Positions 1 to 59,445 are shown, counted from the first letter of the stretch. The stretch is 64,000 nt of DNA from Eledone cirrhosa (GCA_964016885.1 OZ024755.1:20274001-20338000); one strand, 5' to 3'. Made by a program: numbers and translations. Notes: generated by a model from the sequence alone, not told the origin.

Positions 1-1020
1 TATGTACCAGGCCAGAGAGTACGGGATCCTGTCCAGCTTAAGCTTCCAGATCAGGTCGGAGAGAGCCGTGCTTTTCCTTATGGCCTCCTTATTGAATAAA
101 TGGCGATGGTTGTACCAGCGGTCTTTAAAGCTTGTTGATGTGGCTCCTATGTAGGGGTGTTCGGAGTTGGGGGTTTTAACCCTACTACCCTATACTAGGT
201 TCTTCTTGAGGCATTCATTAACAAGGGGGCATGATTCGGGGTTTCTGCAGTTGCAGAGGGTGGTCGACCTCTGCGTGCCTATATTAGGGTTCCCGTTATG
301 TGTTACATGTTGGTCTTCCCCCAGGCCCGGTGGGGAATCCCCGGGTCTGTTTGGGTTTCTTGTGTGGGCTCTGGGTACCCCTCCCCTCCTTTCACATGGT
401 TCTGCTGAGTGCTTGTATTGCCATCTTCTGGTTGTGTGTGGTTTTTAAGCCTACTCCTGTTGATGGTAGATATGTGTTGGGCCAGGTTTCTCGTGGTGGA
501 ATACGAGAGCTTCACAGTGTGTCTGTTGAAGATCCTGTGGTATCTATGGTCCCTCGGGAAGCATTTATCAAGTGCTCCAAAGAATAATCGGGCCAAGCTG
601 TTCTTTAGGGCCGCTGAGTAGGGTGGATTGTACCACGTGATTTTTCGGTGTCTCCTCCTATATGTGTGGGTCGGGCGCGTCGTGATTTGTTGGAGGTTTG
701 TTGGGTTGCTAGTGATTCCCGCACTGTTGCTTCCCCTTTGGGCGCTATGCTTTTTGTTATCTTCACGGCCCGAATCTGTGGGGTGGTCGTTGCCCGCGCT
801 GGGAGATCTATCGTGGGGTGGTCCCCCGTTTCCCCCCTCCCTACGTGTCGTGCGGTTGGGGTCGTCGGTCTTGGGGTGGTTAGCGTCACCCCTGAGACTG
901 CTACTCATATTGTGTTTCATCTCGTGGTTAAGCGTACTAGTCACCACCGCCCGTGAGGTGGTATCGGGCACATGGTGCCTATTTGTTTCTGCTCTGCCTG
1001 TATTGCATTTTTGTTTTTAA
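1..1020 (-). mobile_element. Decayed Penelope-like retroelement C-terminal region (linker plus GIY-YIG endonuclease), running off the window edge
   Basis: Minus-strand peptide RKITWYNPPYS...LDKCFPRDHRYHRIFNRHTVKLSYS (ORF 303-971). After a frameshift it continues as CNCRNPESCPLVNECLKKNLV*GSRVK...YIGATSTSFKDRWYNH...STALSDLIWKLK, i.e. a Cys knuckle plus GIY-YIG motifs with a TAG at the first Tyr. Confidence 0.85.
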
Positions 1021-5210: not shown

Positions 5211-6650
5211 TCATTGGCGGTAGCATTAAGACAGCGTTTAAGCATAATAGAGGTGTATATGAAATCATATATATATACATATCTCGTAATACGCTTATAC
5301 ACATTAAATATATATATATAGCGGTGAAGAAAAATAAATTTTTTCGTAGCAAAATAAATCTAATTTTTCTTTATTTTACTATGTGAATATATGAGAGTTA
5401 CCAGTAAGTATGTCAGACAGCGCTGTTTCAAGATTTCATGAGTGGCACTCACTCAAAACGTCCCTGCATTAAATATACTATAGTCTATCTAGTATATTGC
5501 ATGGTGCTCATTTGCTTGAGATGCTTATATTTGGGTTCCAGCTACACCTAATTTGTAAAGTAAAACCATCGGAAAGCTTGTTAACACTTTGTGTTAGGTT
5601 CTTATTCAGATAAATTGAATGCCCTGGATTCCATCCTCATACAGAACAAATTTTTTTACTCACGCTGCGATCCAATTTATCTTAATTATGTGAATATATA
5701 AAGTTGCGTTTTTTATAAGTTTCAATCTCCCTGATGTCAAATTTATCTTCTTCATGTGAGCAAAAAGATATGCTTTAACGTTTTCCTCGAAATGTTATAC
5801 TAAATATATATTGTATTAAATTTCTGGTTATCCGGGTCGTTAATTATCAAAACCTCCTCACGGGCAGGGCTGTCATTTAGTATGTTTTTTTTAATGTTTA
5901 TCTGGTTGATATGCCCAATCTCTCCTGTAATTCATTTCTTCCTACTCCTCATTACACGTTCACATCTTACTTCTCTTTTGTTTGTAACCATCAATCTCTT
6001 TTTGTGTATATAGCTATCGCCTACTACGTCGCTACCACCAGAGTTGAGAGTCAAAATGTTTTTCTAGTCTACCACTTACTACCTTCTCTCTCTCCCACAC
6101 ACACACACTCTCTCAGTACAGTCTTACAGTCTATTATTTACACTCACCCACCTCATACGTTATCTGTCATACGCTTCTACTCTATCCAATTATTCTTTCA
6201 GTTTTGCCTTAACAGTCAGTCTTTAAATGAAAAAAAAATTGGTGTATATATCACTTTTTACACAGGCTGAGGGCAAGAACTTTGGTCAGATTATACCGAC
6301 CAATCTTTGACTGGCAATTATATTATTAATCTCGTAATGGTGAAATGTCTGAGAAAACCGTCTAAGAATTTCATGAAGCACTCGGCCGTTATTTGACGTT
6401 CTTTTCATGAACTGACATTTTTGCCAGCAGCAAAGAACTGAGTAACAATGGAATAAAGCATCGGCCCCAGTTTAAAAAAAAAATCAACTAAACATATTGA
6501 GCACATGTTCAATCGTGTGGACATAGGCTTATACATACACACCTCTATACACATGTGTGTGTATGTATGTATGTATGTATATATATATTTATATACCATA
6601 TGTTCTCTTATTTATAGTGGTCGGTTATTATTATGATAGTTATTGGATAG

Positions 6651-6838
6651 TGGATTGGCAGTATTGGTAGAGAGTCGGACGCCATGCTTTGACGCATAGA
6701 GTTACGGCCCTTGCTATTCTGAGTTCAAATCCCGCCGAGGTTAACTTTGCCTTTCATCCTTACGGGGTCGATAAAATAAAGTACCAGTAATACACTCGGT
6801 AATTGCTGGCCTTGTGCCTAACGTAGAAACAATTATTA
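6651..6838 (+). mobile_element. tRNA-derived SINE, family A
   Basis: Box A-like TGGCAGTATTGGTAG, box B GAGTTCAAATCC, body GCCTTTCATCCTTACGGGGTCGATAAAATAAAGTACCAG, tail GTAGAAACAATTATT. More than 20 copies in the window. Confidence 0.9.
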
Positions 6839-11220: not shown

Positions 11221-11643
11221 TTATATATTATACATATATATATTATACATACATATATATATATATATATATTATACATACATATATATATATATATATT
11301 ATACATACATATATATATATATATATTATACATACATATATATATATATATATTATACATACATATATATATATATATATTATACATACATATATATATA
11401 TATATATTATACATACATATATATATATATATATTATACATACATATATATATATATATATTATACATACATATATATATTATACATACATATATATATA
11501 TATATATTATACATACATATATATATATATATATTATACATACATATATATATATATATATTATACATACATATATATATATATATATTATACATACATA
11601 TATATATATATATATTATACATACATATATATATATATATATT
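11221..11643. repeat. Compound minisatellite ATTATACATAC(AT)n, left flank of the Penelope
   Basis: Direct reading. Same unit and orientation as 15838-17320. Confidence 0.95.
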
Positions 11644-12159
11644 CTTATATTTGGGGAGGGTCATATTTGCGTAATATTGCCAGAATTAATAACAGAACAC
11701 ACTCACTGTTTGGTTGGTTTTCGCTTCTCGCTGTCTTTTATATATATATATCTGCGATCTAACTTACTCGGTCCTCAATGTTGCCATTGACTGACCGGCG
11801 GTCAAAAATAATACAGATACAATATAGACAAACACATATATATATAGTTTACATAAATCTTTCGTTGCACATCTGCAACATCGTCAGTGGTGTTATATTC
11901 ATTGTTCCTCCTGTTGTGTTGTATGTCTACGCCATTTTTTTTGTTCAGTCTGTCTATATATTTATTTATTTATTTGCTTGTTTGTTTATCTTATTTTATT
12001 TTGTCTTCTTTGCGCATGCGTTTGCGTGTGTGTATAGTGTTATGTGTGATGTGTGACTAGTGTGTATCGTGTTGTGTCTGCTGGGTGACTAGTGTGTGTT
12101 TATGTGCTTGTGTATGTATTTATTTATCTTATTTTATTTAATTTAATTTACTTATTTAT

Positions 12160-14482
12160 TTATACTTCTCTTAGGTCAGTGTTGTTTGTTTGGGTGTTGT
12201 TGTTGTTCCACTCATTCTTTCTGTTTAGCTTTGGTTTTCTAATTTCTATTTCACTGGCCTCTCTGATTTGCCTATCTGCTGGGTCATTCCTATGTTTAGA
12301 TATTATTCTAATTTCTATGTTGTCTATGTTACCGTCATGATGTTGTCTAGCATGTTCGTATAGTACTGACCCGTTTTTTCGTCCTTTTAGTTCCCCCCAG
12401 TGTTGGTCTATCCTTTCACCTATGCTACGAGCTGTCTCACCTATGTATGTTGTTGTCGTGTTTCTGCAAGTACCCTCTGTACATCTTATGCTATAGACTA
12501 CGTTTCTAGTTTTACAGTTTATCCGGGGGTTCACCTTACATATGATACATTTCCTATTGGTACAGTGGGTTTTCTTAAAAGGGTAGGTTTTGCTGATCAG
12601 GGATTTTATGGTGGTTCCTGGCTTTTCTACCACCTTTATTTTTAAGTGGGTCTTTCTCAGGGCCTTTCTACACTGGTTAGCTAATTTCCCTCCAGGGGTG
12701 GCGTCCACAAACATGACACTCTGATATCTCTGGTTGTCGTACCATGATGTGGCCTTCCCTATCTTATGTCTAGCCCTATCTAAGCTATTCCATGATTTGC
12801 TCCTGTATAGTGGGCAAATTCCTTTCATGTCCAGTTCTATGAGGGTCTTATACTTTTCCATGGCTCCTTCGTATACTCTGACTCTGTCTCTTTGGTTGTA
12901 GCCAGAGAACTGCATGCGGTTGATGAAGTGTTGGATGTGTCCTTCCATTTCTGTTGGGTCGCACATGCTGGACACATTCTTCATCACTCGTACCAAATCT
13001 GCGATCAGAATATTAAACTTAGCACTACTGGACATTGCTGAGTTTTTGAGTATCAGGTATTTGGAGGCCATGGGTTTAGCATAGTGTGAGTGGAGAATTT
13101 GGGCTCTCTCGTCTATAGTGTTAATCCAGAGTTCTGTGTCTAATACAGGTAGTCTATTGTTAGGGTGTTTGGAAGGGAAGTCTATAGTTACAGTTATACT
13201 CTGGTGTATGGAATTAGCTATCTGCTGGATGCTTTCCATCGTGCTACGTTCTAAATCAAACTTGTTAGTGCTCTCTAGTGGGGGTGTTCTTATAACTATA
13301 TTGATATCGTCTACATAACGAGAGTACATGATGAGGTCTATGGAGCTTTCATTAAGGAGATCTTTAAGTCTCCTTTCCCACCATACCATGAAAAGGTTGG
13401 CAACATCGCCAGCTATGCTGACGCCGATGGCTGCTCCCTCATTTTGGGTGTAGATTTTCTCATTGAACTTAAATATGTGGCCCTTTAGGGTAGTTTTGAT
13501 ACTAGCCCCTATTGCATGTGCGACCATTTTTCTTACCTGATCAGTGTTTTGGGGGGTCCGTATAGCTTTGGTCCACCCAATCCACCTTCCTATGGGAGTC
13601 TTTTTAGCCATTGAGGTTATGGTGGGGGGTCTACCTCTTATAGGTCTACTAGGGCAGAAACATCTAAGGTCATGGCTGTCTAGGTAGTCAGTGTCGTAGG
13701 TAAGTCTAAGTAGGAGGCCTAGTTCGTCTGTGTCGACGTCGCAGAACTCCACCTCACTCTCAATGATCATCTCCACACATCTTTTCACAGCAAAATCAAT
13801 GTTAATGGATGGGTACAGTGACACCACATCCATGCTGCCTATTATGCAGTTGGATAGGCTCCTGTTTTTGTTGCACTCACTGATTCTGCTGAGGAGGTCC
13901 TCTGTACTTTCACATACATCTGGGGACATCTTGATTATGGGGCGTATAACCATTGAGAGGAAGTAGGAGATCCTGTAGTTGCTAGCTATATTAGCTCCGC
14001 ATACAGGTCTTGTTGGTGGTCCTATTGTCGGGTCGTCGACTGTCTTGTGGTCTTTGCGGAGCCCATACAAGGGTGGTATGCCATTGTTAGACGCCTGGAA
14101 GTTGTTGGCAGTGCGTCTGCTTGGCTTTAGGATGTCAGTCCACATCATCATGTGAGCGTTGAGGATTTTTTCTCTCCCATCGTGTGTTAGTTGTGCAACT
14201 TCGCTCGTGTTGGTGATGTGGGGTTGCATTGCCTCGATGTAGTTCGGCATGCTATCTATTGACATCCTACCAGACTTATCTGTGGGTAGACACACTACCT
14301 CACCATCCCTTGTGCGCTGCTTGAGGCTAACCAAGCCTTCTACAGGTTTTATCCCAAGTTGTTGGGCCTCTGGTCTGCTCTGTCTCATAGTGTACCTGTC
14401 TACTACTTGTCTAATCTTATTTCTAGCTATGGTGAACTGTGCCTCCGTCTCGTCATCTATTTGTTGTGGTATGCAACATCCA
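12160..14482 (-). CDS. Penelope-like reverse transcriptase-GIY-YIG endonuclease (N-terminally truncated, frame intact)
   Basis: RT motifs PPTRPVCG, GSMDVVSLYPSI, QNEGAAIGVSIAGDVANLFM, YSRYVDDI, LPVLD. Cys-rich linker CTNRKCIICK...C. Endonuclease motifs NVVY...YIGETARS...RIDQH...HARQHH...RQIREA...LN. First in-frame ATG near 14388. Confidence 0.95.
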
Positions 14483-15261
14483 ACATCCAACACTTCATCA
14501 ACCGCATGCAGTTCTCTGGCTACAACCAAAGAGACAGAGTCAGAGTATACGAAGGAGCCATGGAAAAGTATAAGACCCTCATAGAACTGGACATGAAAGG
14601 AATTTGCCCACTATACAGGAGCAAATCATGGAATAGCTTAGATAGGGCTAGACATAAGATAGGGAAGGCCACATCATGGTACGACAACCAGAGATATCAG
14701 AGTGTCATGTTTGTGGACGCCACCCCTGGAGGGAAATTAGCTAACCAGTGTAGAAAGGCCCTGAGAAAGACCCACTTAAAAATAAAGGTGGTAGAAAAGC
14801 CAGGAACCACCATAAAATCCCTGATCAGCAAAACCTACCCTTTTAAGAAAACCCACTGTACCAATAGGAAATGTATCATATGTAAGGTGAACCCCCGGAT
14901 AAACTGTAAAACTAGAAACGTAGTCTATAGCATAAGATGTACAGAGGGTACTTGCAGAAACACGACAACAACATACATAGGTGAGACAGCTCGTAGCATA
15001 GGTGAAAGGATAGACCAACACTGGGGGGAACTAAAAGGACGAAAAAACGGGTCAGTACTATACGAACATGCTAGACAACATCATGACGGTAACATAGACA
15101 ACATAGAAATTAGAATAATATCTAAACATAGGAATGACCCAGCAGATAGGCAAATCAGAGAGGCCAGTGAAATAGAAATTAGAAAACCAAAGCTAAACAG
15201 AAAGAATGAGTGGAACAACAACAACACCCAAACAAACAACACTGACCTAAGAGAAGTATAA
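14483..15261 (+). CDS. Inverted duplicate of the C-terminal linker plus GIY-YIG domain
   Basis: From IQHFINRMQF to DLREV* the translation is identical to the C-terminus of the minus-strand ORF. First ATG at 14506. Confidence 0.85.
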
Positions 15262-15533
15262 ATAAATAAGTAAATTAAATTAAATAAAATAAGATAAATA
15301 AATACATACACAAGCACATAAACACACACTAGTCACCCAGCAGACACAACACGATACACACTAGTCACACATCACACATAACACTATACACACACGCAAA
15401 CGCATGCGCAAAGAAGACAAAATAAAATAAGATAAACAAACAAGCAAATAAATAAATAAATATATAGACAGACTGAACAAAAAAAATGGCGTAGACATAC
15501 AACACAACAGGAGGAACAATGAATATAACACCA

Positions 15534-15561
15534 CTGACGATGTTGCAGATGTGCAACGAAA
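15534..15561 (+). ncRNA. Hammerhead core plus stem II in the pseudo-LTR (mirror copy 11860-11887, minus strand)
   Basis: CTGACGA-T-GTTGCA-GATG-TGCAAC-GAAA. Stems I and III are not convincingly formed locally. Confidence 0.55.
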
Positions 15562-15837
15562 GATTTATGTAAACTATATATATATGTGTTTGTCTATATT
15601 GTATCTGTATTATTTTTGACCGCCGGTCAGTCAATGGCAACATTGAGGACCGAGTAAGTTAGATCGCAGATATATATATATAAAAGACAGCGAGAAGCGA
15701 AAACCAACCAAACAGTGAGTGTGTTCTGTTATTAATTCTGGCAATATTACGCAAATATGACCCTCCCCAAATATAACAATATCTGTTTCGACACACGATT
15801 TCATATAAAAAACCTCGCAAAACTAATTCATCGCCGC

Positions 15838-44968: not shown

Positions 44969-45745
44969 ATAACTTCAGATAATGCCATATTTTTAGATTG
45001 ACCGACGAAACATTTGGCAAGAATTTCAATTAACTTTTCCAGCATTCTCTAATGTTCATCTCATCATTAAATTGGGAAACGCGGTGACGATGAAAGGCAG
45101 AAAAAATATTGAAATATAAGAAAAACTTAGGTTCAAATCCAAAAATTAATAGACTTTGCCGTTGCTACAAATTTCCAAAAATCTACATTAAATATAAGGC
45201 ACGTAAAATTCCTCTCATTATGTTAATATATCAAATAATAAACAAAGGAGGATTTGTGTAAAATGATGAAATGTTCACTTTGCCATTTATCTTTACGAGC
45301 TCAATAAAATAAAGCACCAGTAATGCACTGGGATGATTGCTAGCCTTGTGCCAAAAGTAGAAACAATTATTATGGTGATATAATGATGTAACCTTTCGAA
45401 ATGTCTGGGCTTTTTTTTTTCTCTTGTTTAATTTTTAAGTTATAGCTCGATTTGCATAAATAAAGCCAGTTTAAAATTGTACATAACAAAGTCTGTGTGC
45501 CTGGATGTATTTACTCACACACTACTACATGACTAAAATTGTCTCATTCGTTTGAAATCATCAGGGACGTCTATGTATGTATGTATGTATGTATGTATGT
45601 ATGTATGTATGTATGTATGTATGTATGTATGGATGTATGGATGGATGTATGGATGTATGGATGCATGGATGGATGTATGGATGGATGGATGGATGGATGG
45701 ATGGATGGATATGTGTGCGTGTGCGTGTGCGTGTGTCTGATATAT

Positions 45746-45827
<82 letters not shown>

Positions 45828-45847
45828 TTATTAAAATAACAGATTAA

Positions 45848-45898
45848 AGTTTAAGCAAAGAATCGCTGCTTTCACCCTTAACGGGATCTTCTGAAACT
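45848..45898 (-). ncRNA. CAGAAGA-core hammerhead-like motif, copy 1
   Basis: Minus strand: AGTTT-CAGAAGA-TCCC/GTTAA/GGGT-GAAA-GCAG CGATTCT TTGC-TT-AAACT. Confidence 0.6.
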
Positions 45899-46161
45899 AA
45901 AAAAGTCAATCTGTGAACGCAGAAGTAAATATTTCAAAATACATTGCAACTGAAGGAAGACAGGAAGACGATACTTTGGTTCGTGGAAACGTTCCCTGGC
46001 AAAGAACGGAAAAAAACGAAGATAATACGTCATTATTTGGTGCAGTGAAAACAATTACACGCAAAGACAAGACCTCGTTTATGGTATAAAGTATCGTCTT
46101 CCTGTCTTCTTCGGTTGCAACGTTTTTTGAAATATTTACTTCTGCGTTCAGATTGACTTTT

Positions 46162-46216
46162 TTAGTTTCAGAAGATCCCGTTAAGGGTGAAAGCAGCGAT
46201 TCTTTGCTTAAACTAA
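46162..46216 (+). ncRNA. CAGAAGA-core hammerhead-like motif, copy 2
   Basis: TTAGTTT-CAGAAGA-TCCC/GTTAA/GGGT-GAAA-GCAG CGATTCT TTGC-TT-AAACTAA (7-bp stem I). Confidence 0.62.
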
Positions 46217-46900
46217 TCTGTTATTTTAATATATATTTGATCTACAGTTCCTATATATCTGATATATATTTATCCTTATCGAGCCCTCTTTGGATTTAGT
46301 CTTCAAATTTAATATTATTACTATTATGTGTGTGTGTGTGCGTGTGCGTGTGCGTTGAACAAATTCCTCCTTGTGTAACACACAAGTAATCAGTAAAGAT
46401 TTTTGTACGTAACATATATTGAAAATAGATATAAATTCAATTCATTAATGCTAAGATAAAAAAAAGCACGAATCAATAAAACCATAATCTCATGGAAGAG
46501 AGTAGAAAAGATTATTATTTAATTATTTGAAAAACATGTATGTTTGTATATATATATATATATATATACACATATATATATATACATACACATATATACA
46601 TACATATATATGTGTGTGTGTGTGTGTGTATATATAACATAACAGTACGTGACATATTTCTATGACTTACTGTCTACAAATCAATGAAAGTGTTGTTTAA
46701 TTGTATATTTTGTGAAGCAAAACTCATTTTTTTCTGTGACAATAGTCAACTAGTCAATAATATTTTCTTCATATCACACATTTTTGCAAATATTCTAATA
46801 TATTTATAATAGATACTAATCAATATAGTTATCTGCTGAAATATGTAGACACATGCTTATACATAATGTATAAATATCTCTCTCTCTCTCTGGCTGTATG

Positions 46901-46989
<89 letters not shown>

Positions 46990-47018
46990 GGTAAACAGAA
47001 ATAACAACACAATCGGTA

Positions 47019-47052
47019 TTAACGTTTCGGACGCTAGTCCTTCATTAGACGA
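47019..47052 (-). ncRNA. Mutated minimal hammerhead (G5A)
   Basis: Minus strand: CTAATGA-A-GGAC/TAGC/GTCC-GAAA-CGT-TA. Stem I is poor. Confidence 0.5.
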
Positions 47053-47497
47053 AAGAATGAGGAATTAAAATATATTGAGGAGAAGGGCGGGTTGGAATTG
47101 GAAAAAATGTCTTTAGTCGTTGGATTTTCTAATTGGATTTTCACCCCGAAACTGGATACCAACCCGGAGTACACCTGAACTTCCACCAGGAAATCATTGA
47201 AATGTTCTTTGCTTCTTATATCTCTATATTTCTCTCTCTTGATTTTTTCTCTGTCTGGTGTTTTGATATATCTCTCTCCTATTTCTTTTTTCTTTTTTTT
47301 TTTCTCTTTTTCTTTATCTCTCCCTTTCTTTCTCAACTTTTCTCTCTCTCGGTTTTTCTCTCTCGCCGTCTTTTTCCTTCTCCGTCACACAATGACTTAC
47401 TAAGATAAACAAATCCAATATCCTGATGTCTTCCAAAAGTAACGGTTGCATTTTGAAAGGGTATGTTAAAATTTATTTATAAAACTGGTATATATTG

Positions 47498-47562
47498 TAT
47501 TTTGTCTGATGAAAGCAAACCATAATTTAACATGGTATCCTTGAAATATGTATAATAAAATA
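47498..47562 (+). ncRNA. Type I hammerhead ribozyme, AUA family copy 3
   Basis: TATTTTGT-CTGATGA-AAGCAAACCAT...ATGGTATCCTT-GAAA-TATGTA-TA-ATAAAATA. The module 47419-47605 matches 26735-26890. Confidence 0.7.
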
Positions 47563-47601
47563 GATACGGTTTTATAAATATAGTTTCCATTTGTTAATAT
47601 C

Positions 47602-47641
<40 letters not shown>

Positions 47642-47689
47642 ATAATTATGAAGACTAAAACCCGAAGAGGGTTCGATAAGGGGGATATG

Positions 47690-47741
47690 AGTTTCAGAAG
47701 ATCCTATAAAAGGGTGAAATCAGCGATTCTTTGCTTAAACT
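47690..47741 (+). ncRNA. CAGAAGA-core hammerhead-like motif, copy 3
   Basis: AGTTT-CAGAAGA-TCCT/ATAAA/AGGGT-GAAA-TCAGCGATTCTTTGC-TT-AAACT, preceded by an inverted copy of the family's 3' tail. Confidence 0.55.
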
Positions 47742-49005
47742 TTAATCTGTACAAAAATAATAAATAAATATATATACATACACACACACACCACACACAT
47801 ATACATATATATATAACTTCAAAATGTTTTCCGTCTTAAGACAGTGTCTATTTCAATTATTAAGAGGTATATATTTTTCCATTCACACACTGCAAACACG
47901 AGTCTATCAGAATGTTGTTTATCTAAATACTTATACATTTATTATGGTCTTCCAAATGATTTTTTGTAGATTAGGAACTATTTGTTTCTGTAATAATTTT
48001 ATCTTTATTCCTACACTATACTGTATTGATTTTCTATCTAAAATTCTCTAAAGGCATCGCTCTTTCATGTTGCATATTGATTCAATGCAAAATCATGGAA
48101 TATTTTCTTTCATTTAATGTAGAAGTCCAACAAATGCTACCTCTCCTCATTTCGTCCAACAAGGAAAATAAAATGTTTTCCACCCGTTCAGCCTTTTCTA
48201 TTTTTCTTCAATTATTGAAGACTTCGTCTTCGGCTTGTCGTTTGAGGAATCGATCGATAAACTCTGGGACACATCCCAATATTCTAACTAATAATTTATT
48301 TTGTAATATTCAGCACTATTCTGTCAACTCTATATTATTTTAAAACCTAAAACCTACATTACCATTTGAGAATCAGCGAAATTGAAACAACTTTGATTCA
48401 TTAGAGTCTGAATGTAGCAAATAATATATATTTATTCATAATCAAACCTATAAGAAAAAGTAATTACTGTTTTTATTAAACCCTGGTGTATTCATTAACT
48501 GACTTTCGAATATTTCTTTAGAACATAACTTGAATCATTTAGTAAGTGAATAGAAACTAAGTGATTCATTTCCACTATTACTATTTAGGTTCGATGTTTG
48601 GATAACCATGTACTTATTTGCTTACATTCATGCAACATCAACCCAAACATAGATCATTAACCACAAAAAGAAATAAGACGTCTAGATATTCTGTAAATCA
48701 TACCGCATTATGAAATATACCAACCATTTTATTGATTATCGATATATATTGACCTCAACTACCTTGGTTATAAACAGTTTGTACTCCTTACACTAAATAT
48801 TATTGTGTAATCTATGATAGTTTACTGTACGCCACAAATTCTCCACAGAAAGACGCATAACCATAAACCAATCCTGTTTCAATTCTTCTTAAAAGATTCG
48901 CACCATATATTAAAACTCAATTCTCCTTTTGATAATTTCACATTATAAAAACTTCATAAATTCAGACTCATAATTGTTTCTACTTTTGCCATTATTTATT
49001 TAGGA

Positions 49006-49350
49006 AGGCGATGAATTAGCAGAGTCGTTAAACCGGCGTATAGAATGCTTTGCGCTATTCGTTTAGGCTCTCTGACTTCAAAACCCGCCGATGTTAATTT
49101 TGCCTTTCATTCATTCGAGATCAATAAAAAAAAAAAAAAAAAGTACCAAAGTACTGGGTTCGAATCTTCCTCTATATCTCTTTCTCACTTCCTTTCTTTC
49201 ACTCTCTCTCTCTCTATCCTTCCCAGGAAGAAATCTGTAGTATTCAGACCTTGAGAGGGATGGACCCATCATGCTTTAAAAATGCCCTAGAAACGTTGTA
49301 TGTCAATATGGAGCCCCTACGACTCCCTCAAGAGTGACCGGATCAAGCCA
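49006..49350 (+). mobile_element. SINE family B, uninterrupted
   Basis: Degenerate tRNA head, shared GCCTTTCAT body and CT-rich tail. Collinear with 32058-32520 minus the inserted A copy. Confidence 0.75.
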
Positions 49351-50002
49351 TCCCATGCCAATTATTTAGGAAATAAACTAAAGGCGAATATTTCAACTTA
49401 TACCTTCTCTTCACAAATATTTATTTGAATATTTATTTGTTTTATTACTATTCTATGTTTAAGTATTCTTTGAAAAAACATATGCTTATTAATATATCAA
49501 AACACATAACACTGTGTAACATCGTCTCTTAAAAAAGCTATTTTCTCATCGATATTTACTTCTTTCGATAGTTTATACACAATCAATAAACTTTACAATT
49601 GGCATTTAAACAGATCTTAGTAACAAACACAGACAGAAAGTAATTTTTACAATATAACAGATCATAATATTAGTAATTCAAAAGAGCTTTTTTTTCTTGT
49701 GTTTATAGATTATTGTAATATATCAAAACTGTTAAGTTGCTCTCAGAACTTCTCAGTTTTTAATTGTTATGTTGAGGATCAGAACCAGACAAGTTGTTAA
49801 AGAGCCGGAATATTAGATGAAGAGTCAAGAGTTTGTATATTATAGACGGCGTTAAACTGAATTCATTTCTATTGAAATTAATCTTGTCTTAAACTGGTAA
49901 AATGAACGTTATACGTAGCAGAAAGACTATTTTTCAACGTATGTTGGAGTTTAGTAATAGAAATCATTGTTTCTTTTTGTCTAATCCAATGACTGGCTCC
50001 TA

Positions 50003-50205
50003 TTGGGCAGTATCAGTAGAGTGGCAGTATCAGTAGAGTGTCAGATACCATGCTTTGAAACATAGAGTTGTGGCCCTTTCCGTTCTGAGTTCAAATCTCG
50101 CCGAGGTTAACTTTGCCTTTCATCCTTACGGGGTCGATAAAATAAAGTACCAGTAATGCTCTGGGGGGTAATTGCTGGCCTTGAGCCAAAAGTAGAAACA
50201 ATTAT
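50003..50205 (+). mobile_element. SINE family A
   Basis: Consensus match with a duplicated head segment. Confidence 0.88.
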
Positions 50206-50904
50206 TTCCTTTTTATTTTATTTTCTATTGTGTCTGAAGGCTGGAATGTAAGTCAACTCAGCTGGAAACAAAGCTGAATTCTGAGCATAAGACTAATTAC
50301 TGTAATGAATTAACTCGGTTTATCTACTAGTACTGTGAATTTTGGAGGATGGGGGGGAGTAGGGAGAGGAGTGGAGGAGGGAGGAGGGAGTTGGTGAGGA
50401 AAGGGGTGAAAAGAGATGGTGGGGGTGATTTCAAATACTGTCGTAATAGACGTTACCCTTCTATGTGTTGGACTCATTTAAAGTTGATCTGAGTTAATGG
50501 GAGTCCATCCATTTAGTACGCTCTTTCCTTTAAACGTATTGATATTCTGCATGATTAATCAAAAGAAATCAATATTTTCAGCAGATTGTTATTTCATGAT
50601 ATTTTAGTTATTGGGTTGATTAAAATCTGTTACTGTTAAATACAGCCATTTGTTTGCTTTTTGCAAAGTCAAGTTCGAAATATTTATTGATGGGCTTCTG
50701 CATAAAAATTCCTTATTTATCCAAGGAAATTAGATATTAGTAATATTAGCACTGCCGCTTCACTGTTTGGGTATTTATGTTTGCTCATATTCCTGGCAAA
50801 CATTCTATTTATTCTATTTCTCGACCGTCGTTAATTTCAACGACACTTTCAGTTAAAGTAGGAGCCTCTATAAAGTAAGAGCTTCGCTTTATCTGCAAGA
50901 TATC

Positions 50905-51140
50905 CTAACTTAACACCTTAAAGATTGGCAGCCATATTGTATAATATATAGCTTTTCTATAGTATGTTATTGAACGCTAGATATCTTATTTTAACACCTT
51001 AAAGATTGGCAGCCATATTCTATAATATACAACTTTTCTATACTATGTTATTGAACGCTAGAATTCCTAACTTAACACCTTAAAGATTGGAGGCCATATT
51101 TGCATAATATATAATTTTTCTACACTGTTTTATTGAATGC
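50905..51140. repeat. About 82-bp tandem repeat, 3 copies
   Basis: TAACACCTTAAAGATTGG(C/A) starts at about 50911, 50992 and 51073. Confidence 0.9.
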
Positions 51141-52322
51141 CCATAGCTGTTCTTTGATAATACGACTACCCAATCAAAAGTAACCTAAGGCTAAACTGTA
51201 ATATCTTAGTCTCCCATGGTAATTAAAAATAGAATTTTTTTTTGCCATAATATGAAGAAGACTTTGCAACCGTTTCAAACAATTTGTTAATATTGATCTC
51301 TAGGGCATACAATATTAGGTTCCTTTCAAACTTTTCTCTGGATATTTTATAGTCTTTTAACATTTCCTTTATTAGTTTAGAATATGAAAATTGAAGTGGA
51401 TAATGTTCAATAAGTCGCGATAACATTTATTGAACAGCACAGTTGGTTTAGTCTCCTTATCTTTCCTTCAGACTATATTCACAATCCTTTTATTTTAGCT
51501 TTGATATTGAAAGCCAAACTTTCAACAAAACCGCATTTATGGTTTTACTCTGACCGACTCTTTAACTGTGTTATGAATTTATTCATTTTGGCAAAGAGAT
51601 AAACCAAATTAATTGTGGGTGGCATTAATTGCCATGGTCCTCAATGAATTCTTTCCATTAATATCTGGAAAACATAATTGATTTTCATCTTTAGAATTTA
51701 AATTCATATTTTACTGTCTAGTTATGAATAACTAGAACGTAATTTGAAATACCAGATAAGTGAGATTTGTTTCCAAGTAGTAAAATATGTAAATTATTTT
51801 GCATTCATCATATAATTTTACGGAATATCGTTCAAATAAAAAGAAACAATTTAAGTGAGAGCGGATGGAACATTATTCCAGCTAAACTGCAAAAATTAAG
51901 CATTTTAAATGCCAGAAATATTTATATTTCAGTAAAAATGCTCATATACTTTGTAAATAATTGTTTCTACTTTAGGCACAAGGCCAGCAATTATCCAGTG
52001 CATTACTGGTACTTTATTTATACTTTGTAAATAATGTTTTGTTTTTATTATCATTATCATCATTTTAGAAGAATCATATTCATTACACAGACTCTCGTTA
52101 TATTTGCTTGTTTCGTTCCAGATTATTCCTGAAGAAGCACACATATAATGAAAGGTATTAGATCGCCTCTTTTTAATGTGCAGCCTCCCATGTGAGCTGA
52201 CATATTTAAGATAATAGGATGCGAATAAAGGTAAAAATTGCTTCTATTTCTAACCTTTTTTATTATAACTTTGATTCCCCATCGTTAGCCCTGAACATAT
52301 TACATATAAGTATCGGATTCAT

Positions 52323-52361
<39 letters not shown>

Positions 52362-52737
52362 AAGAGCGGGAGAAAGAGGGGGAGAGACAGATATAAAGAG
52401 AGAGAATCAATATCTAATAACGTATAATTATAAAATCGATATGTAACAATGATTATACCACAAGGCAAGATATTTTTCCTGACGGGATTTAATGAATTAC
52501 AGTCATTCCGACTATTTGAACGGGACTCATTTTATCCTACCCACCCCCTCACGTAATAATAAACAGCCCGCTACACACACACACACACACACAGACAAAC
52601 TCATAAATCTAACACTTATAATTCCCCAGAGGTCACTTCTTAAAACCACGCACGTAAATTACCACCACTTCATCGCAAACAACCCCTGGTATCACTTCTA
52701 AACACCTAGCGACCAGTATTACAAACCTCAGTTAACA

Positions 52738-53385
52738 GAAAAAGAAAAAAAGAAAAAAAGAAAAAAGAAAAAAGAAAAAAAAAGAAAAAGAAAAAGAAAA
52801 AGAAAAAGAAGAAAAAGAAGGAGAGGAAGGAGAGGCGGAAGAAGAGGCGGAAGGAGAGGAAGAAGAGGCGGAAGAAGGGGAAGAAGAGGCGGAAGGAGAG
52901 GAAGAAGAGGCGGAAGAAGGGGAAGAAGAGGCGGAAGAAGGGGAAGAAGAGGCGGAAGAAGGGGAAGAAGAGGCGGAAGAAGAGGCGGAAGAAGGGGAAG
53001 AAGAGGCGGAAGAAGAGGCGGAAGAAGGGGAAGAAGAGGCGGAAGAAGAGGCGGAAGAAGGGTAAGAAGAGGCGGAAGAAGAGGAAGAAGGGGAAGAAGA
53101 GGCAGAAGGGGAAAAAGAGGCAGAAGGGGAAAAAGAGGCGGAAGAAGAGGAAGAAGGGGAAGAAGAGGCGGAAGAAGAGGCAGAAGAAGGGGAAGAAGAG
53201 GCGGAAGAAGAGGAAGAAGGGGAAGAAGAGGCGGAAGAAGAGGAAGAAGAGGAAGAAGAGGAAGAAGGGGCGGAAGGGGAAGAAGAAGTCAAAGAAGTGG
53301 AAGAAGAGGAAGAAAGGGAGAAAGGGAGAAAAGGGAGAAAAGGAAGTAGAGAAAGAGGAAGTAGAGAAAGAGGAAGTAGAGCCAG
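52738..53385. repeat. Purine-rich (GAAGAGGCG)-type repeat
   Basis: Direct reading. Confidence 0.95.
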
Positions 53386-53865
53386 AATCCTGAAGAAAGA
53401 GAAAGAAATTTCTCAAGTTACTTCACCACTCCAACCACCAGAATAGATACTTCCCTACATGTTCTGAACAAAACAAATATTGGAGCGTCTAATAAGCACG
53501 TCCCAAAAGGCATCATAAAAAATGTAAATAAGTTTTCATAACTTTCACGAAAAAAGAAAAGAATATCTAGAAACAGTGTCAGACAATTAGATAAGAAAAT
53601 ACCAAAGAATATAAAGAATAGCAGAATAACAGAGGCAGGGGAGTGGAATCAGCAATATTTCCATCTAATATAAATCATAAAACAAACAGTAAAGTAATTA
53701 GTAATTAGTATCAACAACAATAACAATGACCACACCTTATCCCATATCAAAATAGATCACTTCAAACAACATAGCCACTTCCTAAACTAAGCAAACGCTA
53801 GACAGTTATTCAGAAATCAGTCACTGAAAACTACACAAAGAAAAAATGAACACAAAACAAACATA

Positions 53866-54083
53866 TTAACCCTTTAATGTTCAAACCAGCCAGAATTCTC
53901 TACCTTTTTCTATTGAAACTGGCTGCAACTGGTCGCTCAAACTGATGTTAAGGTATTGTTCTCAAAATAAATACTTTCAAAATCTCATAGATTCGGTATT
54001 ATGTGAGATAATTATGTGAGGTAAAGCCTTTACCATGAAAATATAATAGTATATATAGAGTAATATGAACGCTAAAGGGTTAA
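53866..54083 (+). mobile_element. piggyBac-type MITE, complete
   Basis: TTAA-CCCTTTA...TAAAGGG-TTAA (TTAA TSD with TIRs). Confidence 0.85.
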
Positions 54084-54231
54084 GCACCTTTCACAAAGCA
54101 AATGATTTATGTTCATTTTACCAGTCATGCCTAACACGCCAGCATCTCCACTCCACAACAAATATAATAAACTAGAAAATATACAAAACATCACATTTCG
54201 AATCCTCACATATTCTACACATAATGTACAC

Positions 54232-54419
54232 CAGGCATGTCAAACTGAGGGTCACCCGAGGGCTACATGGGTCACATATGTGCTGTCTGAGGGCCACACA
54301 TGACAACTAATTGCACACATTACAACTAATATTTTTTTTATTTTATAACGCTCGCACTGTAAAAACCTTTGTTTGGGCCGGAGGTATGCTTGTAAAGGGC
54401 TGCATTTTTACCATGCCTG
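54232..54419. mobile_element. hAT (Charlie-like) MITE
   Basis: TIRs CAGGCATG...CATGCCTG. The 8-bp flanks ATGTACAC and TTCTAGAC are only partly alike. Confidence 0.5.
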
Positions 54420-54837
54420 TTCTAGACTACCGATCGTACAGAGAACCTACCCATAGTCTACATAATCACTATTTAAAGACAGTTTCCAATCCAATCCAAA
54501 GCCTCACTCCTGTTGGAGTAAGCCTCTCTGATTGACCTCCATCACATTAATCATATTAGGTTTTGGTCATGTCTTCAAGAGTGTAGTCGTACTCAGCACA
54601 CTTGGTCAATTGTGAGTTGGTGAGGCTATTTAACCCATAGTTGAGGTGGATGACTTTTGACTGAGGATTTTATCCACCATTTGAAACATTCTTGTTCTTT
54701 GTACAGCTGGAATTCCACTTAGCCTCCTCACCAGACCAGCATCTGGTGAGGGAGCTGGTTCAGTCAACAACCACCAGATGTTGAAATATGGTGACATAAG
54801 GAAAGAAAGAAAGAGACAAAGAAGTAGAAAGAGATAC

Positions 54838-55700
54838 GGAGAGAAGGGGAGGAAAGAAAGAAATAGAAAAAGAGAGGGAGAAGGGGAGGAAAGAAAGAAA
54901 TAGAAAAAGAGAGGGAGAAGGGGAGGAAAGAAAGAAATAGAAAAAGATAGAAAGAAATAGAAAAAGAGAGGGAGAAGGGGAGGAAAGAAAGAAATAGAAA
55001 AAGAGAGGGAGAAGGGGAGGAAAGAAAGAAATAGAAAAAGAGAGGGAGAAGGGGAGGAAAGAAAGAAATAGAAAAAGAGAGGGAGAAGGGGAGGAAAGAA
55101 AGAAATAGAAAAAGATAGAAAGAAATAGAAAAAGAGAGGGAGAAGGGGAGGAAAGAAAGAAATAGAAAAAGAGAGGGAGAAGGGGAGGAAAGAAAGAAAT
55201 AGAAAAAGATAGAAAGAAATAGAAAAAGAGAGGGAGAAGGGGAGGAAAGAAAGAAATAGAAAAAGATAGAAAGAAATAGAAAAAGAGAGGGAGAAGGGGA
55301 GGAAAGAAAGAAATAGAAAAAGAGAGGGAGAAGGGGAGGAAAGAAAGAAATAGAAAAAGATAGAAAGAAATAGAAAAAGAGAGGGAGAAGGGGAGGAAAG
55401 AAAGAAATAGAAAAAGAGAGGGAGAAGGGGAGGAAAGAAAGAAATAGAAAAAGATAGAAAGAAATAGAAAAAGAGAGGGAGAAGGGGAGGAAAGAAAGAA
55501 ATAGAAAAAGAGAGGGAGAAGGGGAGGAAAGAAAGAAATAGAAAAAGATAGAAAGAAATAGAAAAAGAGAGGGAGAAGGGGAGGAAAGAAAGAAATAGAA
55601 AAAGAGAGGGAGAAGGGGAGGAAAGAAAGAAATAGAAAAAGAGAGGGAGAAGGGGAGGAAAGAAAGAAATAGAAAAAGATAGAGAGAAGGGGAAGAAAGA
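54838..55700. repeat. About 35-bp polypurine minisatellite
   Basis: Unit GAGAGGGAGAAGGGGAGGAAAGAAAGAAATAGAAAAA with variants. Confidence 0.97.
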
Positions 55701-56241
55701 AAGACGCTAATACTCGTCTCCATGTTTTCGCTCAAATTTCAGATTCTTTAGTTTCTAGTGGAATACTGCTTGAAAGGAAAGCAACAACATTCTCAATGAA
55801 AATATCTTTTTTAAAAAAGATGCCTCAAACTTTAACAATCTCATAGATCTGATAATGACAAAATGGTGGTATGTATGATGAGGCTTCTGAGCAAGTTATT
55901 CAAATATTCAATTTCCAAAGCGTTAATAACTACTCGAGTGCTGTTCAGTATGGAGAAGAAAGTATTTTATTGAATTTAAGATTAGCTATTCAGATAACAC
56001 TAACTGTTGCAAAATGTTCTCATATCTCAGCAGTGAACCACCTTTAATCAATTTAAAATTATATTTATGAATTTCCAGGGGTAGACAATGCTGTTCGCCT
56101 TAGTTTGCTGGGCATTGAACTTGAAGAAACTGAATACTAGAATTACTATATCATCTCACAAGTTTGAGTAAGATAAAAGTGAGAATATATGATGTACATA
56201 TTTATCTATAAACACACACACTATAAATATATATACATGTG

Positions 56242-56275
<34 letters not shown>

Positions 56276-56390
56276 GCTACACTTCTGATATAACAAAAAC
56301 AAAAAAAAACAGAAAACGATAGAGGTCAATCAGGGAGGGGTTCCTTCGGTAGGAGTGAAAAGGCCCTGGATTGAATATATATATACATAC

Positions 56391-56421
<31 letters not shown>

Positions 56422-56601
56422 GGCGTTAGGAAGGGCATCCAGATGTAGAAAACCAGCCACAAACACCTCTATATGAGTGAGACATGGTCATCCAACACAA
56501 TTTGCCTCTAAATGGGACTCGTCTAACCCATGTTAGCATTTAAGATGGACATTAATCGATGATGATGATATATATATATATTTATTAAAATAACAGATTA
56601 A

Positions 56602-56652
56602 AGTTTAAGCAAAGAATCGCTGCTTTCACCCTTAACTGGATCTTCTGAAACT
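56602..56652 (-). ncRNA. CAGAAGA-core hammerhead-like motif, copy 4
   Basis: Same as copy 1 with one stem II substitution. Module starts right after a TA run. Confidence 0.55.
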
Positions 56653-57054
56653 AACAAAGTCAATCTGTGAACGCAGAATTGAGTATTCAGATGTTTCTGC
56701 ATGATGAATATAAGTCAATAGAGTGCTCAACCGAGGGAGCCAAATATATATATATATCATCTTCATCATTTTGATAATACAGCCATATAAAGACGAAGAG
56801 AATTTTCAGACCTCTGTCATTGTTTTATGTAATGGTAAATGTAAATATTACTTTTATTTAGAGGATTCTAAAGACTTCATTATAACAGGAATGAATTTTT
56901 CTGTAATTTTAGTGAAACAATCATGAATCAAATATTTTAATTGAAATCCTGATTATTTTTTATTCATTTATATATATATAATTAAGTTAAATTCACAACA
57001 TTGTCATCAGCCACATATGAAAATGTTGTGAATTCAACATATTATATATTACAA

Positions 57055-57207
57055 CACACTGGAAGAGGAAAACCAAGGTTAACGTATGTTGATGCCCTAA
57101 GGACAGACACTGGTCTGTTGGAGACGCAGGACATGGCAGCGATAATAAGGGACAGAGACCGCTGGAGAGAACTCTTCCATGGGTCTCGGGAATTTTACCC
57201 GCCCTAG
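57055..57207 (+). mobile_element. 3' end of an RTE-type LINE ORF
   Basis: GRGKPRLTYVDALRTDTG...DMAAIIRDRDRWR matches the RTE C-terminal GRP..T..D...DR..WR pattern. Confidence 0.7.
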
Positions 57208-57329
57208 AATATATTACAACTTATACCTTGGAATGCATGTTCTGTTAACAGCATATAGATCTGTTATGAAATTCACTACATGTGTGTTAGAAGAGGACAT
57301 ATATGCATATATTCATACTGCCTTACATG

Positions 57330-57760
57330 CATTACTTATATGTGTGGGTGTAAGTATACTTGCATAGTATATACATACTTATACATACATATGCAGAAAT
57401 GTATATATACATGCATAGTATATACATACTTATACATACATATGCAGAAATGTATATATAAATACACACACATACATATATTATATATATATATCCACAT
57501 ATGCATATACATATATATATATATATATACACACATACATATAAATACACACACATACATATAAATACACACACATACATATAAATACACACATACATAT
57601 AATTACACACACATACATATAATTACACACACATACATATAATTACACACACATACATATAATTACACACACATACATATAAATACACACACATACATAT
57701 ATATATATATATCCACATATGCATATGCATATATATATACACACACATATACATATATAT

Positions 57761-57791
<31 letters not shown>

Positions 57792-58371
57792 CACACACAC
57801 ATACATATATATATATATACACACACACATATACATAAATATATATATGTGTGTGTATATATATACTATATATCATCAAAAAATGATATATATGTATATA
57901 TACACACATATATACATAAATAAATATATATCTCTATACACACACACACACATAAATAAATAAATAAATATATATCTCTATACACATACACACACATAAA
58001 TAAATAAATAAATATATATATACACACACATACATAAATAAATTTAAAAAAAAATATATATATATATATACTCACACACACGCGCATGAATATATATATA
58101 CACACACGCATAAATATATATATATACACACACGCATAAATATATACATATACACTCATGCATAAATATATACAAACATATACACATGCATAAATATATA
58201 TATACATATATCTACACATGCATAATTATATATATATATACACATGCATAAATATATATATATATACATATATATATACACATGCATAAATATATATATA
58301 TACATATATATATACACATGCATAAATATATATATATACATATATATATACACATGCATAAATATATATAT

Positions 58372-58422
<51 letters not shown>

Positions 58423-58725
58423 CACTCATGCATAAATATATATATATATACACTCATGCATAAATATATATATATATACATATATACACATAAATATATA
58501 TATATATGCATAAATATATATGTACATATATATATATACACTCATGCATAAATATATATATACATATATATATATACACATAAATATTTATACACACACA
58601 CTCACATGCATAAATATATACATATATACACACATGCATAAATATATATATATACACACACACACACATGCATAAATATATATATATATACACACACACA
58701 CGCATAAATATATATATGTGTGTGT
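57330..58725. repeat. Compound TA/CA microsatellite
   Basis: Direct reading. Confidence 0.95.
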
Positions 58726-58942
58726 GGTAACACAGTAAAAGTTCCCAGTTCCACACTGTCAATGTTGTTGGAGTTAGGAAGGGCATCCAGCCGTAGAAAA
58801 CCTGCCAGATAGTCCTATATGAGCGAGACACGGTCACCTGGGTGTATTTTTGTTAGAGATGTCTACTGACTGTAGGTTTCGCTTTGTACTTAGACAAGGC
58901 GGGTCTTCGGTATTACTGTGTAGCACCAAAGATCTCGGTCCA

Positions 58943-59272
58943 TCATTCATTTCATTTCATTTTACGTCCGCTTTTCCCTGCTTGCAAGGGTGGGACGGGA
59001 ACTGATTCTGGCTTGATTTCTACAGCTGGATGCCCTTCCTAACACCAACCTCATTTACAGTGAGTGCTGGGTGCTTTTTTGCCGTGGCACCTCCACGACC
59101 ACTTTGCAGTGGAATGATAGGGACCCCAGTCCCTATCATCTCATTTCTACAGCTGAGTAAACTGGAGCAATGTGAAATAAAGTGTCTTGCTCAAGGAAAC
59201 AACACATCACCCGGTCTGAGAATTGAACTCACAACCTTTCGATTGCAAGGCCAATGCTCTAACCACTAAGCC
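58943..59272 (-). mobile_element. tRNA-derived SINE family C (CORE/V-like central domain)
   Basis: Minus strand: GCTTAGTGGTTAGAGC (box A), GAGTTCAATTC (box B), CCTTGAGCAAGACACTT, AGGAAGGGCATCCAGC and a (TGAAA)n tail. Partial plus-strand copies at 56421-56570 and 58770-58837. Confidence 0.8.
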
Positions 59273-59396
59273 TCCATATATATATAGTAATAATAATAAA
59301 TTTGCAGACTAAAATCCAAAGAGGGCTCGATAAGGATAAATATACATCAAATATATAAGAACCGTAGAGCAAATATTTATTAAAATAACAGATTAA

Positions 59397-59445
59397 AGTC
59401 TAAGCAAAGAATTGCTGCTTTCACCCTTAACGGGATCTTCTGAAA
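59397..59445 (-). ncRNA. CAGAAGA-core hammerhead-like motif, copy 5 (5' edge at a TA run)
   Basis: Minus strand: TTT-CAGAAGA-TCCCGTTAAGGGT-GAAA-GCAGCAATTCTTTGC-TT-AGACT. Confidence 0.5.

Follow-up and report, generated by a model that had tools for sequence, protein, structure and literature searches.

The window, a stretch of 64,000 nucleotides of Eledone cirrhosa DNA (GCA_964016885.1 OZ024755.1:20274001-20338000), holds five CAGAAGA cores in a type I hammerhead context, at 45893(-), 46169(+), 47695(+), 56647(-) and 59442(-). A sequence-only reading had claimed five such motifs, and they are present at its coordinates and in the context it described. Along the strand each motif runs stem I, CAGAAGA, U, CCC/GGG, U, GAA, A-U stem III, U, stem I, an order of stems and core that agrees with the type I topology claimed; the three-stem junction, with stems I, II and III of 5, 3 and 5 bp, has its ends joined in stem I. 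Position 4 of the core is A in place of U (U4A). The copies are not independent of one another but are homologous ends of a repeat, brought in by four insertions: an inverted pair at 45824-46325, then arms at 47636-47750 (the second insertion), 56577-56746 and 59284-59445, with the following features:

45824..46090, minus strand: inverted, 5'-truncated element arm (3' UTR, hammerhead, short end in (TA)n), 90% to the natural full-length copy L071 3410-3675
45848..45898, minus strand: U4A hammerhead motif copy 1, intact; core 45893-45887; predicted cut after 45853
45839..45914, minus strand: predicted distal extension of stem I (centroid fold), 45914-45906 with 45847-45839, closing a 7-nt bulge
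46088..46325, plus strand: forward arm of the 45824-46325 insertion, with ~87-nt tail (5' UTR sequence), 92% to L071 3522-3763
46164..46214, plus strand: U4A hammerhead motif copy 2; core 46169-46175; predicted cut after 46209
47636..47681, minus strand: second insertion, inverted tail fragment
47689..47741, plus strand: copy 3, an extra G (47689) and then the motif from the exact first stem I base; one stem III pair broken
56577..56687, minus strand: arm with copy 4; motif 56652-56602; one stem II pair broken
56684..56746, minus strand: element 5' UTR end and start codon, joined to the 56577..56687 arm; internally deleted copy, 92% to L071 3760-3825
59284..59445, minus strand: arm with tail; copy 5 motif 59445-59397, its first base being stem I base 3

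Two of the five copies pass a structural scan. One stem III pair is broken in the copy at 47690 and one stem II pair in that at 56602, and the copy at 59397 lacks its first two stem I bases; the stem differences among the copies, noted earlier, are decay and not covariation. Stem I, given before as up to 7 bp, is really 5 bp, the 7 bp at 46162 being the product of a 2-nt deletion in that copy. The cut previously expected after 46209 is the same as the one predicted here from the motif structure. Because the arms of 45824-46325 are unequal pieces of a retroelement end, the candidate reading of this insertion as a MITE is ruled out. No hammerhead family appeared among the 150 of 160 Rfam matches listed at E<=1.

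Searches of the 3.0-Gb genome identify the motifs as the end repeat of one Penelope-like retrotransposon lineage with Hydra-clade protein motifs, which bears out the suggested link to the hammerheads of Penelope-like pseudo-LTRs. Open frames of 702-726 amino acids are found in 8/8 fetched loci, with RT and then a C-terminal GIY-YIG in a single ORF (YRDD at 346, AYIG at 597). The protein also has RWR at 37, DKT at 115, CNCRNRADC at 564 (CxCx5C linker), CDLC at 662 (CxxC) and CKH at 690 (CxH); RWK-like, DKT, CxCx5C linker, CxxC and CxH motifs mark the Hydra clade (Craig et al., 2021; PMC8557442), and by its motifs the element appears Hydra-like. Two protein fragments queried against Pfam were assigned to no family. 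The unit measures ~3.26 kb and inserts in (TA)n. Copies occur as partial tandems and with inverted arms, and the two ends differ in length by ~87 nt; the hammerhead motif precedes the start codon of the following unit by ~200 nt. In eight long loci every canonical core listed lies outside the element, and the oldest relatives do carry a canonical hammerhead in the end repeat.

In the Hydra clade (Craig et al., 2021, file S2; PMC8557442) type I hammerheads likewise lie near the element 3' end, and the elements that carry them share the (TA)n targets, inverted arms and tail. A short stem II opened by U10.1·U11.1 occurs in 14 of the 26 rows of that file and U at the cut site in 10 of 26 (hand counts), so both features are ordinary for this clade, including the U of the NUU triplet singled out earlier; U10.1·U11.1 is a known tolerated hammerhead variant (Perreault et al., 2011; PMC3088659). 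The Eledone cirrhosa family differs in its tail (~87 nt versus 30-40), in its cut-site triplet (CUU, where the Hydra clade has mostly GUH), in stem III (5 bp with a 7-nt non-palindromic loop versus 3-4 bp and 1-3 nt) and above all in position 4, which is U in 26 of 26 Hydra-clade rows, found with canonical descriptors, and A here. The octopus Hydra element carries a different, canonical motif (PMC8557442).

A4 is the norm across the genome. A 30-letter pattern with positions 4 and 7 free has 18,744 exact matches, 18,557 of them (99.0%) with A4; the first 100 of the remaining 187 comprise 37 G, 35 T and 28 C (hand count), which puts U4 at ~0.35% of the family. A 17-mer from the sequence 3' of the cut matches the genome at 47,932 sites, and young-type ends number at least as many. 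Of the arms picked out in this way, the first 88, on contig 1, contain 68 whole cores, and A4 is present in every one of these. In 50 of 53 old-type loci, picked by the downstream flank, the cores uncut by a joint read CA at positions 3-4, with one TA (by eye), and in the old set picked by the upstream flank A4 is found in 27 of 28 loci with a base at position 4 and U4 in none. These counts support the earlier proposal that the source elements amplified with the A4 variant; a family-wide CTGAAGA, named beforehand as the contrary case, does not hold, and a CUGANGA-based descriptor is indeed blind to a family with CAGAAGA. Among young-type U4 copies (35 listed, 20 of them fetched) the upstream variants and the ends are mixed, as would fit separate changes that followed insertion. 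An apparent U4 subfamily of 1,386 matches was rejected, since most of 30 fetched loci are fold-back joints centred on TTC-A-GAA in which one strand reads CTGAAGA. Separately, no RNA run appeared among the runs listed for the repeat, and four contig runs, of uncertain kind, gave no other letter at position 4; these may include the window's own sample and are not counted as support.

The rest of the canonical core, C3, G5, A6, G8, A9, G12, A13, A14, A15.1-U16.1 and H17, is in the majority in the oldest, old and young groups of the family, and the canonical G10.1-C11.1 pair is replaced by U·U. Because position 4 departs from the canonical U in nearly all copies, we file the motif as a derived variant and not as a canonical member. 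Natural core variants described before likewise alter one otherwise fixed base, among them U3-A8, A6C, U15.1-A16.1, insertions and the viroid U4C (PMC3088659; Cervera and de la Pena, 2014; PMC4209133); in the present family the change is U4A, a string absent from the main text of PMC3088659. The literature searched, which includes parts of PMC3088659, PMC6765202, PMC11014351 and PMC3376415, describes neither a naturally occurring U4A hammerhead nor this family.

A sister family in the same genome (L332), with 51% protein identity, has the same architecture with a CTGATGA core (U4), and when the two families are compared by structure, 8 of 11 stem pairs are changed on both sides. The A4 motif is a true hammerhead descendant. 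A U4 pattern has 27 matches, 7 of them from a very decayed group of the A4 family's own lineage; the A4 version of the pattern has 1,091. A DNA search with one decayed U4 copy gave 45 matches, of which 30 loci were fetched, and the 16 whose alignments reach the upstream flank, query included, constitute the oldest group. Here position 4 is U in 12 of 16, A in 2 and C in 2; a flank pattern for the group matched two loci, both already in the set. This group matches the A4 groups throughout stems I and II, over the first four pairs of stem III and in seven distal pairs, and its motif differs from theirs only at position 4 and at one outer stem III base. Decay from the own-group majority amounts to 13% in the oldest, 8% in the old and 1.2% in the young group, and a separate comparison gives 10% for old, 7% for middle and 1.7% for young copies. 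Because the most decayed relatives are mostly canonical U4, U4A arose in this lineage, and the distribution among the groups suggests that it most likely did so once, between the oldest and the old group.

What happened to the motif afterwards can be read from a comparison of column majorities between thirty old loci (30 of 40 matches, upstream flank only) and 39 young arms, two subfamilies of which the old set mixes at least two types (N7 T 14, A 10), and both of which were selected by flanks that touch one distal strand in each set. None of 38 stem and core positions differs, and none of the 18 positions in the distal helix, which is the same in both subfamilies and has seven of its pairs in the oldest group too; differences are found at 8 of 20 loop, bulge and N7 positions and at 19 of 57 flank positions, or 10 of 42 without a possibly replaced upstream block. 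Against the latter flank count, p is 0.001 for the 38 stem and core positions and 1e-4 for all 56 paired or core positions (0/56). Unpaired positions of the core are also unchanged (0/12) compared with unpaired free positions (8/20; p=0.014), and N7, the free core position, has changed. We take this history as showing signs of continued constraint on the fold after U4A. The stems of the A4 lineage are invariant and do not covary, and therefore constraint on sequence is inseparable from constraint on structure; sequence-level constraint, for example on a promoter or a protein site, could be the source of the invariant stems.

Many short insertions start at an extra G before stem I and include the whole motif. 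A base other than T precedes the first stem I base in 1,918 matches, and the 100 listed have G in 65, A in 26 and C in 9 (hand count). Upstream of nearly all of these 100 the sequence is unrelated, and G remains in excess after removal of ten microhomology cases (55/90, 25% expected); in several loci both inverted arms carry it. Of the 88 arms picked without bias, by sequence 3' of the cut, 6 begin at ~+1, five of them placed there by alignment and one by eye; 20 begin between +1 and +10, 14 in the 43 nt that follow and 1 at the cut. The native context around the stem I start is initiator-like. Untemplated G in LINE-1 and SVA insertions has been read as cap reverse transcription (PMC4859970), and Penelope has an internal promoter with an initiator and a downstream element (PMC2377424). 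The extra-G starts likely mark a capped transcription start at the first stem I base, inside the ribozyme, a position thereby located from DNA alone. Each extra-G insertion would then preserve a capped RNA that was not cut at +46 and on which priming took place 75 or ~162 nt downstream.

Such a start is not peculiar to A4, since the sister U4 family has inverted joints at or near the stem I start in 10 of 25 arms. Of seven long copies that have an inverted arm, three speak against a single linear template, because there the arm extends well past +1; therefore read-through, multimeric or circular RNA also serves as template. Ends at the predicted cut are scarce (1 of 88 arms), as in canonical family A (0/31); by eye, no peak at the predicted cut is seen among 100 of 964 matches listed, and canonical family E likewise has no sharp peak (100 of 399 listed, hand count), so that scarce ends at the cut carry no weight either way. 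In Anolis the Poseidon element PAc (Frangieh et al., 2024; PMC11167929), from a different clade, shares the two internal priming sites that define the tail and the use of unprocessed RNA, its main insertion substrate in vitro, without an end pile-up at the cut site. Its hammerhead cuts in vitro, and only with protein; a cap-like G at the first stem I base, present in the Eledone cirrhosa family, is unreported in the part of that paper covered.

The folding energy of the copies is no better than that of shuffled sequences (z -0.5 to +0.7), so it is homology, and not energy, that supports a hammerhead here. In a folding model that leaves out tertiary contacts and protein, the hammerhead in no case comes out as the minimum. 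From +1 the most stable fold predicted pairs UUUCA with UGAAA, at -8.8 versus -5.5 kcal/mol for the hammerhead. Pair probabilities in this rival hairpin are 0.3-0.7 with A4, about 0.7 at A4-U11.1, compared with at most 0.06 in a natural U4 copy, and those of stem I do not exceed 0.08 with A4, also when the distal helix is present, versus 0.08-0.20 with U4. When the upstream sequence is included, a 9-bp distal helix forms (0.76-1.0), and proximal stem I still stays at or below 0.08.

We hypothesize that the U4A hammerhead is an attenuated, slow and possibly protein-assisted ribozyme under selection, a reading of these comparisons to which we give a probability of about 0.5. Metazoan Penelope-like hammerheads are slow (PMC4209133), and in a viroid U4C lowers activity to a level still sufficient in vivo (PMC3088659). 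On this reading transcription would begin, capped, at the first stem I base, and reverse transcription would be primed 75 and ~162 nt downstream on uncut RNA. The cap-side copy is predicted to lack the upstream strand of the distal helix and to pair its A4 with U11.1 in the rival hairpin, and therefore the capped mRNA and template would stay whole. Cutting, if any, would be left to the copy that is complete, in the downstream repeat, or to read-through RNA. Cleavage probably needs no dimer, given a 5-bp stem III whose loop is non-palindromic. More tentatively, we propose a U4A hammerhead in which cleavage persists, weakened by selection and governed by context: the capped copy would be locked, and the downstream copy could fold and cut with help from the element protein.

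The capped, uncut RNA that would so frequently act as template, and the preference of A4 for the rival hairpin, also fit a motif that is catalytically dead, in which the three-way fold is a scaffold for the element protein or the two priming sites and the 5' half is an internal promoter of the kind known in Penelope. We consider this a serious contender, if short of an even chance. In a pairwise scan of one type III ribozyme, all single and double mutants of the CUGA region except the C3/G8 swap had low activity (PMC9901934), and hammerhead mutants did not impair insertion in vitro (PMC11167929), so that cutting may be dispensable. However, a promoter alone leaves the unchanged 3' strands (+41 to +60) unexplained, and N7 has changed where the other 12 unpaired core positions have not, an argument from a single position. 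It is improbable that the motif is a neutral dead relic, killed by U4A, the remainder of which has yet to drift in the source elements: few subfamilies can be compared, and Naiad elements thrive without canonical hammerheads (PMC8557442), but the subfamily history argues against it, with the contrast between constrained and flank positions set in three age classes (~10%, 7% and 1.7% decay). Least probable by our estimate, and very unlikely, is an efficient ribozyme whose core has a new geometry, A4 being rescued by tertiary contacts of the stem I bulge with loop II. Such rescue of variant cores has been proposed (Perreault et al., 2011; PMC3088659), and the distal helix and bulge are conserved. 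However, bulge and loop II sequences vary between subfamilies, CUGA mutants show no rescue in pairwise mutagenesis (PMC9901934), and fast cutting of the capped copy is hard to square with the many whole-motif insertions from +1.

The history of U4A is unusually clear. The lineage amounts to a natural experiment, with a U4 ancestor, an abundant A4 descendant and a fold apparently still under constraint. If the attenuated, context-switched ribozyme proposed here is real, the hammerhead core consensus would be widened at the uridine turn. Should the motif cut, the uridine turn tolerates A and CUGANGA searches overlook abundant ribozymes; should it not, the fold has a non-catalytic job. The purpose of hammerheads in Penelope-like elements has been called unclear (Craig et al., 2021; PMC8557442), and both outcomes bear on why these elements carry them; under the context-switched reading, the passage from a U4 ancestor to A4 subfamilies would provide a natural test series for the role of the hammerhead in Penelope-like elements.

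Besides the A4 hammerhead core under study (CAGAAGA), the window contains hammerheads with the canonical core CTGANGA, which belong to other Penelope-like families, together with a very young insertion and further element fragments:

1-641, minus strand: another Hydra-type endonuclease fragment, 45% identity
1059, plus strand: canonical hammerhead
11639-15782: very young Penelope-like insertion
14610-12160, minus strand: 816-aa frame of this insertion, encoding RT plus GIY-YIG
near 11887, minus strand: its canonical core, CTGACGA
23542, minus strand: canonical hammerhead
26821, plus strand: canonical hammerhead, same family as 47506
30432 region, plus strand: canonical hammerhead
45525-45585: tail fragment of the sister family (related, U4 core), inverted
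47506, plus strand: canonical hammerhead, same family as 26821

The very young insertion has an inverted repeat that is perfect over 1,300 nt. At two genomic loci (L176 and L409), a Hydra-type endonuclease is followed downstream by the canonical hammerhead of the 26821/47506 family. In L071, a natural full-length copy of the young A4 element, the 3' UTR (L071 3251-3522 and again 6509-6781) carries two tandem repeats of ~140 nt, which are ~80% alike and stop ~80 nt ahead of the hammerhead motif.

Of 1,386 matches to an apparent U4 form, 30 loci were retrieved (L076-L105), and most of these show fold-back joints that create a false CTGAAGA on one strand. The quasi-palindrome TTC-A-GAA inside the core is the centre of this joint hot spot.

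Among the 88 arms (the first element ends on contig 1, picked by sequence 3' of the predicted cut), five share a start at -46, relative to the first stem I base, and an identical flank (L294, L311, L312, L315 and L332), which suggests a short, secondarily amplified derivative. In another canonical family (L203, L261 and L307; also present in L166), several arms start at a site that resembles an initiator and lies ~37 nt upstream of the core. This site may be a second mappable transcription start.
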